A stretch of DNA of 60,617 bases, filler included, from Dugesia japonica (lineage: Eukaryota): assembly GCA_001938525.1 (NCBI GenBank). It is 6 parts of 6 records of this genome, joined end to end, with 100 filler letters (N's around TTAATTAATTAA, not from the genome) between each part and the next. Parts side by side here need not be neighbours in the genome. Positions count along the whole stretch, not along the records: positions 9,516 to 21,311 come from MQRL01498387.1; 5 more parts are not named here. One strand, 5' to 3'. The notes below the pieces were generated by a model, which saw only the letters and a list, made by a program, of their open reading frames with translations, was not told where the DNA came from and searched no databases. The position numbers were made by a program, and so were the translations under genes. This document shows, piece by piece, positions 15,061 to 15,512 of this stretch. The number at the start of each line of letters is the position of its first letter. Positions within the stretch are counted from its first letter, which is position 1.

Positions 15061-15512
15061 CTAAATTTTATCAAGCAAATTGAATAAATTTGAAGTAATG
15101 TTATTTGCATATCTCTGAAAATACAAATTTTTAAGTCCTAGTATTACTAGTTTTCCTGTTGAGAACACATTTACACTTAAAAGATCATATTTTACAAGTC
15201 TTAGAGCAGGAAATAACTCTGGTTCTAATCAACAGTTGACTATTCTTGCTAATTTATATAAATTTATTGTAACTCCCATATTTACGACAATTGTTAGCGA
15301 TTGTAATTGTACATTTTTATACCATAGGGGTTCAAATAATACGGTTCCGATAGTTTCTTACAACCCATTATTCTACATTTTCCTGATATGAAGAATATAA
15401 TTATATATTTGTCACTTTTGACTTGGAATTGACATAGTTTGCCTATATGAAAGCTCCTTTTCTTTTTTACTTCATGCGACACTTCACATCTGTAATTAAT
15501 ATTGATTATCAT
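15061..15512 (-). pseudogene. TATA-box-binding-protein (TBP)-fold gene carried by Maverick 1 (one frameshift, one stop)
   Basis: Reconstructed sequence MIININYRCEV...KYIIIFFISGKCRIMGCK...[fs]VQLQSLTIVVNMGVTINLYKLARIVNC*LEPELFPALRLVKYDLLSVNVFSTGKLVILGLK. Both TBP repeat signatures (IFxSGKxxxxGxK) and the YEPELFP-like motif are present. Confidence 0.8.

Follow-up and report, generated by a model that had tools for sequence, protein, structure and literature searches.

The locus at 15061..15512 of the window, by which we mean the whole stretch of 60,617 nucleotides from Dugesia japonica that was analysed, raises the question of whether a Maverick/Polinton can carry its own TATA-binding protein (TBP) and, if so, what such a protein would do for the element. 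A first-pass annotation had placed an intronless, bipartite TBP-like gene at this position. Both TBP core-repeat motifs were indeed found there, each in its own frame of the minus strand. The trimmed N-terminal lobe occupies 15315..15512 (minus strand) and the C-terminal lobe, which includes the EPELFP stirrup, 15061..15318 (minus strand); the ATG lies at 15512 and the final stop at 15061-15063. A frameshift near 15315-15318 separates the two lobes, and there is an in-frame stop at 15229-15231. When compared with P0003, an intact relative of 150 residues, the segment 15512-15315 displayed 68% identity over 66 amino acids and 15318-15064 displayed 78% over 85. Because both pieces align to P0003 without gaps, the copy contains no intron. 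The C-terminal piece, with an X placed at the stop, matched the Pfam TBP family (PF00352) with an E value of 1.9e-8 (34.5 bits, cut-off 22.9). The N-terminal piece alone did not match any Pfam family and was recognized by the profile of the family described below at an iE of 9e-15. One frameshift and one stop mean that the window copy cannot make the protein, which we term mini-TBP. It is a dead member of a conserved Maverick-borne family, so that the earlier claim of an element-encoded TBP gene is supported, with the correction that this copy is a pseudogene.

The surrounding element spans 11596-19178 (7,583 bp). Its left terminal inverted repeat (11596..11707, plus strand) and right terminal inverted repeat (19043..19178, minus strand) are 85% alike over 98 columns (11613-11707 against 19043-19140 inverted), and an identical hexamer at 11590..11595 and 19179..19184 forms the 6-bp target-site duplication, as had been claimed for an element enclosing the gene. 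On the plus strand, a pattern match at 13909..13943 (canonical TATA, then a TCACT initiator-like site) marks a candidate early promoter. It lies ahead of the remnant of a small gene common to TBP-bearing Polintons (14116..14373, plus strand; cluster profile iE 1.2e-10), which possibly encodes a single-stranded DNA (ssDNA)-binding protein. Beyond the mini-TBP pseudogene, and pointing away from it, a YATAAAC box (15580..15586, plus strand) stands 20 nt upstream of the ATG (15600) that is probably the start of the packaging ATPase. Homology to the ATPase begins only at 15903 because this ATG is followed by a foreign insert of ∼280 bp (15606..15899) that breaks the 5′ end of the gene. The insert contains a hairpin with inverted arms, has a 12-bp duplication at its bounds and is an 84% match to 41295-41574, so that this mobile sequence occurs twice in the window. 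If 15600 is the ATPase start, it lies 88 bp from the TBP start, in agreement with the head-to-head spacing of about 90 bp given in the first-pass annotation.

The remainder of the plus-strand block is also decayed. The broken ATPase (15903..16512) is 54-81% identical to the ATPases of related loci, one of which matches Pfam Pox_A32. Further YATAAAC boxes are found at 16498..16504, 39 nt before an ATG at 16537, and at 16752..16758, 40 nt before the ATG at 16792 of a broken pX-like core-protein gene (16789..17099; members of its cluster match Pfam Adeno_PX weakly). These are followed by the N-terminal part of an integrase (17248..17565; 49% to the integrase of locus L014, which matches Pfam rve), a putative minor capsid (penton) gene with an internal deletion (17575..18230) and a small basic gene that is conserved ahead of the putative major capsid gene (18232..18672). 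Another box (18630..18636) precedes by 42 nt the ATG at 18672 of this putative major capsid (hexon) gene, of which the first ∼130 codons are present (18672..19058; 52% to the L014 homologue). All of these features lie on the plus strand, and the gene order ATPase, pX-like, integrase, putative penton, small basic, putative hexon is that of loci L007, L014, L039 and L046. Labels for ATPase, integrase, pPolB, PLA2 and protease were taken from Pfam or PDB matches of intact relatives, and those for penton and hexon from size and gene order. The putative hexon homologues form a conserved gene of ∼410-430 amino acids in the expected place, and their profile gave zero matches against PDB. The putative ssDNA-binding cluster returned nothing informative from PDB profiles, and for a nuclease-like cluster the PDB profile search was blank or weak. 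Polinton hallmarks present in the element are thus the terminal inverted repeats, the 6-bp duplication and the broken integrase and packaging ATPase; the integrase and putative capsid genes are partial only. Neither pPolB nor protease was matched within 11596-19178, and we therefore regard it as an internally deleted Maverick.

Other mobile sequences are present in the window. The same family is represented by another relic with more extensive deletions (54872..55373), which consists of a 57-bp mini-TBP piece at 54872-54928 beside a pX-like gene (nucleotide matches of 86% and 75%). On the minus strand, 36747-40871 holds a Polinton pPolB relic recognized by Pfam, with pPolB located at 36747-40130, 41-52% identity to the pPolBs of L007 and L014 and a local duplication around an assembly gap; it may belong to the same family as the TBP-bearing element. 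A different Polinton relic at about 43500-51410 contains an ATPase (Pfam Pox_A32), an integrase remnant and a protease-like gene. In this single, decayed and partial element we found zero TBP matches, and by eye YATAAAC was not seen before the starts of its ATPase, protease and putative penton genes. A retroelement-type integrase fragment with an H2C2 zinc finger lies at 29664-30326 (plus strand), and AGTAG-type terminal sequences followed by shared blocks occur at 19395, 35176, 35982, 58366, 59167 and 59553, which suggests further small elements with Maverick-like termini. The window also includes a host gene, an uninterrupted frame of 1,196 codons at 4341-7931 (minus strand) encoding PH, ArfGAP and RhoGAP domains, which is intronless across this stretch.

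Intact relatives of the pseudogene are numerous. A first search gave 12 mini-TBP relatives among 14 candidates, most of them 144-155 amino acids long. When a profile was searched without a word index, E≤1e-30 was reached by 35 cluster representatives (clustering at 50%) and E≤1e-10 by 235, with cellular TBPs among the lower-ranking ones. Among the best 120 of 753 matches from a second search, nearly all were 140-180 amino acids in length and were named, at most, by automatic TBP labels. All seven of seven intact relatives matched PF00352 at 45-65 bits. The AlphaFold2 model of P0003 (pLDDT 90.2) is a two-lobed saddle with a shared β-sheet, and when it was submitted to Foldseek all 41 matches shown at E≤2.2e-6 were TBP or TBP-containing structures (best TM 0.77 over ∼174 columns). 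An ESM Atlas search yielded TBP clusters only, with a recognition value below the Atlas's own bar. By these models the family has the TBP fold, which bears out the reading of the bipartite gene as TBP-like. In the modelled N-lobe the stirrup strand is missing and the helix is reduced to 7 residues (57-63), compared with 16 (133-148) in the C-lobe. Relatives of mini-TBP and of the putative hexon were both absent from IMG/VR, a phage search for TBP gave zero matches, and no relative of the element's ATPase was found in GTDB genomes. In D. japonica reads searched at 80% likeness, related copies are numerous: 4,337 contigs in one run and 4,424 in the other. RNA reads recovered at the same likeness (350 and 10) were mostly <90% alike and mostly partial, without start sites; we therefore assigned them to other copies and do not take them to prove expression.

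The family is resident in Polintons. In JGI metagenomes 121 stretches encode a mini-TBP relative, and the best 80 of these 121 were kept as loci. A core Polinton gene was found in 47 of the 80, and in 25 of the 27 loci of at least 4 kb; 75 of the 80 have at least one gene in common with other loci, and pPolB is present in 9. A gene resident in the element should diverge along with its neighbours, and pairwise TBP distances did track those of the ATPase (ρ 0.72, n=24), the integrase (0.63, n=16) and the putative hexon (0.53, n=11); L046, in which the TBP is split, was omitted from this comparison. The mini-TBP family is under purifying selection: dN/dS was 0.05-0.45 with a median of 0.17 for 18 non-independent pairs with dS of 0.05-0.9, and the median rose to 0.31 when the limit was extended to dS 1.5 (86 pairs, saturated ones included). 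A rough tree separated 32 family rows from cellular TBPs at 100/95. Because this tree does not contain a broad cellular or giant-virus TBP set and its bootstrap had not settled (19 of 39 branches open), it cannot name a donor. A search for longer proteins gave two weak matches.

These data bear on the simplest alternative, namely that a host TBP was retrocopied once, landed in the element and then decayed. Such an event would produce a copy that is intronless and broken, as is the case here. Yet the window copy is 68-78% identical to intact proteins of 150 residues, whereas the P0003 model shares only 16-25% identity with solved cellular TBPs; the family rows split from cellular TBPs, and relatives recur in Polinton blocks. 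Intact relatives, Polinton linkage, selection and distance tracking together rule out a one-off retrocopy, to which we attach next to no probability.

Several neighbours of the mini-TBP gene deserve description. The most frequent unannotated one (L011:156-674 and relatives, 23 ORFs in 19 loci) has a predicted DEDDh/Maelstrom-like nuclease fold and probably corresponds to the 'MAEL' label in Fig. S2 of PMC8502044. Accessory ORFs in or adjoining TBP-bearing elements (L007:225-719, L010:4008-4316, L046:1710-2168, L047:13315-13893, L011:1918-3327 and L054:7145-8002) encode a ubiquitin-conjugating enzyme, a dual-specificity phosphatase, RING fingers, leucine-rich repeats and KilA-N. By eye, short AT-rich, intron-like stretches with GTA...TAG ends immediately precede the putative ssDNA-binding ORF in L008, L012, L014, L015, L017, L021 and L031, and would fit nuclear transcription by Pol II. 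A Polinton-like locus (L076:3-470, and L079) carries a more canonical TBP that keeps N159 and both Pfam repeats (90 bits). In the tree this protein falls, on a long branch, with the cellular TBPs; it is possibly a separate capture.

To see which TBP functions could have been retained, 96 diverse members were mapped on a plant-type TBP, and positions were converted by a fixed offset to yeast numbers. The contacts for general transcription factor IIB (TFIIB) are preserved, with E186 present in 89 and E188 in 94 of the 96 rows. These two glutamates contact TFIIB (PMC7221094). Their retention is not an artefact of the search patterns, since they were also kept in rows found without a word index (E186 in 53 and E188 in 57 of 59). 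Three of the four intercalating phenylalanines remain (F116 in 95, F190 in 94 and F207 in 96 rows), as do N69 and P191, while F99 is lost and its position contains no conserved phenylalanine. Approximately 12 residues around the N-lobe helix are missing, and the N-lobe spans measure 38 and 22 residues compared with 47 and 34 in cellular TBP. The full N-lobe helix, which binds TFIIA, TAF1, Mot1 and Brf1, was accordingly not found.

The DNA-binding face is polar and nearly invariant across the family. The hydrophobic minor-groove face of cellular TBP (V71, V122, V161 and L205) and the N159 and T124 contacts are replaced in 90-96 of the 96 rows, by V71N (90), V122R (95), T124M (96), N159S/T (96), V161T/S (94) and L205N (96). 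Substitutions at two more DNA-facing positions, I194R (81) and V203C (86), are nearly as frequent. Residues 194, 203 and 205 are the positions exchanged in the altered-specificity mutant TBPm3 (PMC1636458). With such polar residues fixed across the family, a private promoter box is predicted.

A candidate for this box emerged when 269 dereplicated 90-nt upstream regions (from 306, after 37 near-duplicates were dropped) were scanned for enriched words. The top 6-mer was ATAAAC (120 compared with 16.6 expected) and the top 7-mer ATAAACA (91 compared with 7.2); ATAAACG was also enriched (28 compared with 2.3). The resulting YATAAAC motif precedes 23 of 26 ATPase genes, 9 of 12 putative hexon, 10 of 12 PLA2X, 9 of 17 putative penton, 7 of 16 integrase, 3 of 6 protease and 14 of 20 nuclease-like genes, and was also seen upstream of 7 of 32 putative ssDNA-binding genes and 1 of 4 pPolB genes. 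The majority of matches (83 of 116) are situated 30-59 nt before the ATG. Canonical TATA, by comparison, precedes 22 of 55 TBP genes (4.7 expected) and is missing within 90 nt of the other 33. The ATPase-capsid block of the window has five boxes on the sense strand and none on the other (1.24 expected); across the whole window YATAAAC is not enriched (40 compared with 40.8 expected).

AATAAA is the poly(A) signal, and YATAAAC resembles it and often lies at the end of the preceding gene, so in a tight tandem array the motif might instead mark polyadenylation or termination of the gene upstream. This would not explain why it is absent before 55 of 55 TBP genes, many of which stand in tandem behind another gene, nor why it precedes ATPases that face away from their neighbour, as at 15580 in the window and in L006. 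We consider a termination signal very unlikely and treat YATAAAC as a promoter box. It differs from canonical TATA by a C at position 7 and often by another at position 1. In mini-TBPs an aliphatic residue is retained at 114, the position with which a C at box position 7 would clash. On cellular TBP, a C-G pair at such a position forces Hoogsteen pairing (PMC4402545; PDB title of 1qn3).

The box was then sought in 15 IMG/VR control loci fetched by pPolB or integrase, all 15 of which lack a TBP match; two distant, virophage-looking loci recovered by an ATPase scan of IMG/VR were left out of this set. In the controls YATAAAC preceded 3 of 175 ORFs (6.0 expected) and none of 14 ATPases, whereas in TBP-bearing loci of at least 4 kb it preceded 70 of 202 ORFs (6.2 expected). 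The control loci are distant (pPolB about 24-34% identical) and probably come from other hosts, which makes the control imperfect: common descent, with no causal link, could account for box and gene occurring together.

A more specific association is seen within the family. Loci L074, L077, L078 and L080 encode a mini-TBP with Q at position 122, T or H at 205 and L at 194. In these Q122 loci YATAAAC precedes none of 28 ORFs, and the top 5-mer of an open scan was TAAGC, which precedes 13 of the 28 (2.7 expected; a maximum of 8 in 200 shuffles). TAAGC is not enriched in the R122 loci (22 in 314, compared with 22.3 expected). The four loci form one branch (support 100/96), and the co-variation therefore counts as a single paired change of box and residues; 11 of the 13 TAAGC matches come from two related loci, L078 and L080. 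Neither box was found in 5 ORFs of L065, which combines R122 with V71, or in 6 ORFs of L076, the locus with the near-canonical TBP. L067, L068, L072 and L079 belong to neither group of the R122/Q122 comparison.

The box could also be read by a host factor such as TFIID or a Forkhead protein, or by another protein of the element, with mini-TBP performing a separate job. The Forkhead consensus is RYAAAYA, and the top 7-mer ATAAACA fits it. Moreover, TBP is not the sole gene that co-occurs with the box, because the control loci also gave zero matches to the nuclease-like, putative ssDNA-binding and pX-like genes of the TBP-bearing group. Against such a reader, the likewise enriched ATAAACG does not fit the Forkhead consensus, the box is strand-specific with a spacing that resembles that of a core promoter element, and in one clade it changes along with the DNA-facing residues of mini-TBP. 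The predicted nuclease fold of the most frequent unannotated neighbour does not point to a transcription factor either. We regard a different reader of the box as unlikely, while giving it more weight than any other alternative considered here.

Our preferred reading is that intact mini-TBPs act as the late-gene switch of the element by way of host TFIIB and Pol II, to which we assign a probability of roughly 65%. Genes are called early or late here from their identity. Host TBP would transcribe the mini-TBP gene first, from a normal promoter. Mini-TBP would then bind and bend YATAAAC, a site that host TBP would bind poorly, and its intact C-lobe stirrup would recruit host TFIIB and Pol II. 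With its reduced N-lobe, mini-TBP would escape the regulators that grip this part of host TBP. The redirection of Pol II to late genes is a step that we infer from the co-occurrence of promoter box and gene. One consideration concerns the bending step, because loss of F99 and of much of the N-lobe might cripple DNA bending; the herpesvirus protein KSHV ORF24 requires all four phenylalanines (PMC12529657).

These same features could suit a decoy or repressor that soaks up host TFIIB or occupies TATA boxes, and thereby silences genes of the host or early genes of the element. Mini-TBP is most like cellular TBP in the stirrup that binds TFIIB, the N-lobe is cut down and F99 is gone. A pure decoy, however, would have no need of six near-invariant new residues on its DNA face, and it leaves both the box and the box switch unexplained. 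We hold this function to be improbable, somewhat more so than a different reader of the box.

If mini-TBP is the late-gene switch, this Polinton branch would possess the smallest known viral late-transcription system, composed of a single TBP of 150 residues, a private YATAAAC/TAAGC box and host TFIIB and Pol II; on balance we lean slightly towards this further claim. No TFIIB or RNA polymerase family was matched in the 115 ORFs, of 469 called, that were scanned with Pfam, in loci that are partial and in which many ORFs lack a family assignment.

It has long been asked whether animal Mavericks are genuine viruses with a regulated infection cycle, and virions have not been observed (PMC8097293). 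A promoter factor of their own, matched by a box upstream of the packaging and putative capsid genes, offers a direct test of this question, in a minimal system of one small protein, one 7-bp site and host Pol II. If correct, these 'transposons' would run a self-driven early-to-late viral programme and their TBPs and promoters would form a naturally occurring set of pairs with altered specificity. How a TBP saddle comes to prefer another sequence can be studied in nature from the fixed polar residues and from the TAAGC clade, and the box could help to predict the late genes of these elements.

A TBP gene in such an element is not without precedent in print. Starrett et al. (2021; PMC8502044) label a 'TBP' on a polinton-like MELD virus with an adintovirus-like PolB, as an abbreviation in the legend of Fig. 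5 in a section on non-animal datasets and related elements. This protein may belong to the same family as mini-TBP. The available text of that paper contains no family, residue or promoter analysis of it, and no TBP label for the 26 animal adintovirus maps. In the literature searched on Polintons, Mavericks or adintoviruses together with TBP or the box, with subscription papers and Repbase notes outside its scope, this label was the sole link, and the terms TBP and TATA were absent from the other Polinton papers checked. In its remaining content the element resembles Mavericks/Polintons (adintoviruses), with terminal inverted repeats, a 6-bp duplication and ATPase, integrase, pX-like and putative capsid genes; the loci of mini-TBP relatives also carry pPolB and an adenain-like protease, as Polintons do.

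Mini-TBP shares with cellular TBP, TRF/TBPL1 and archaeal TBP the two-lobed saddle, the EPELFP stirrup, F116, F190 and F207, N69 and P191. Cellular TBP is ∼30 residues longer and contains F99, and V71, V122, T124, N159, V161, I194, V203 and L205 are the residues that mini-TBP replaces. Ravarani et al. (2020, PMC7221094) describe TBP-like proteins of large dsDNA viruses, which have the TBP fold and, like mini-TBP, no longer carry the N-lobe signature recognized by host regulators. Foldseek matched the P0003 model to them at E 4e-8 and weaker, mostly at 9-20% identity. In contrast to mini-TBP, which keeps its TFIIB contacts, giant-virus TBPs have diverged contact positions and cognate viral TFIIBs (PMC7221094, in the available text of which the word 'Polinton' does not occur).

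A parallel to the proposed function is offered by KSHV ORF24 and its kin, TBP-fold factors of nuclear DNA viruses that have a polar DNA face, use host Pol II and recognize a variant box, TATTWAA, at late promoters (PMC12529657). Unlike mini-TBP, ORF24 is a multi-domain protein that binds Pol II directly within a six-protein complex; it keeps four phenylalanines and lacks the TFIIB glutamates, which mini-TBP retains (PMC12529657). Herpesvirus vTBPs (ORF24/BcRF1/UL87) have extra N- and C-terminal domains and partner activators, whereas mini-TBP, at ∼150 residues, is the saddle alone; most members are 140-180 amino acids long, and no partner family was found among the scanned ORFs. The proposed system would thus match neither of the known viral solutions: herpesviruses use a complex that makes no contact with TFIIB, and giant viruses a private TBP/TFIIB pair. 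Mini-TBP would work much as the herpesvirus late-gene TBP mimics do, yet it is not one of them. It has the fold of cellular TBP, of which it lacks three defining features.
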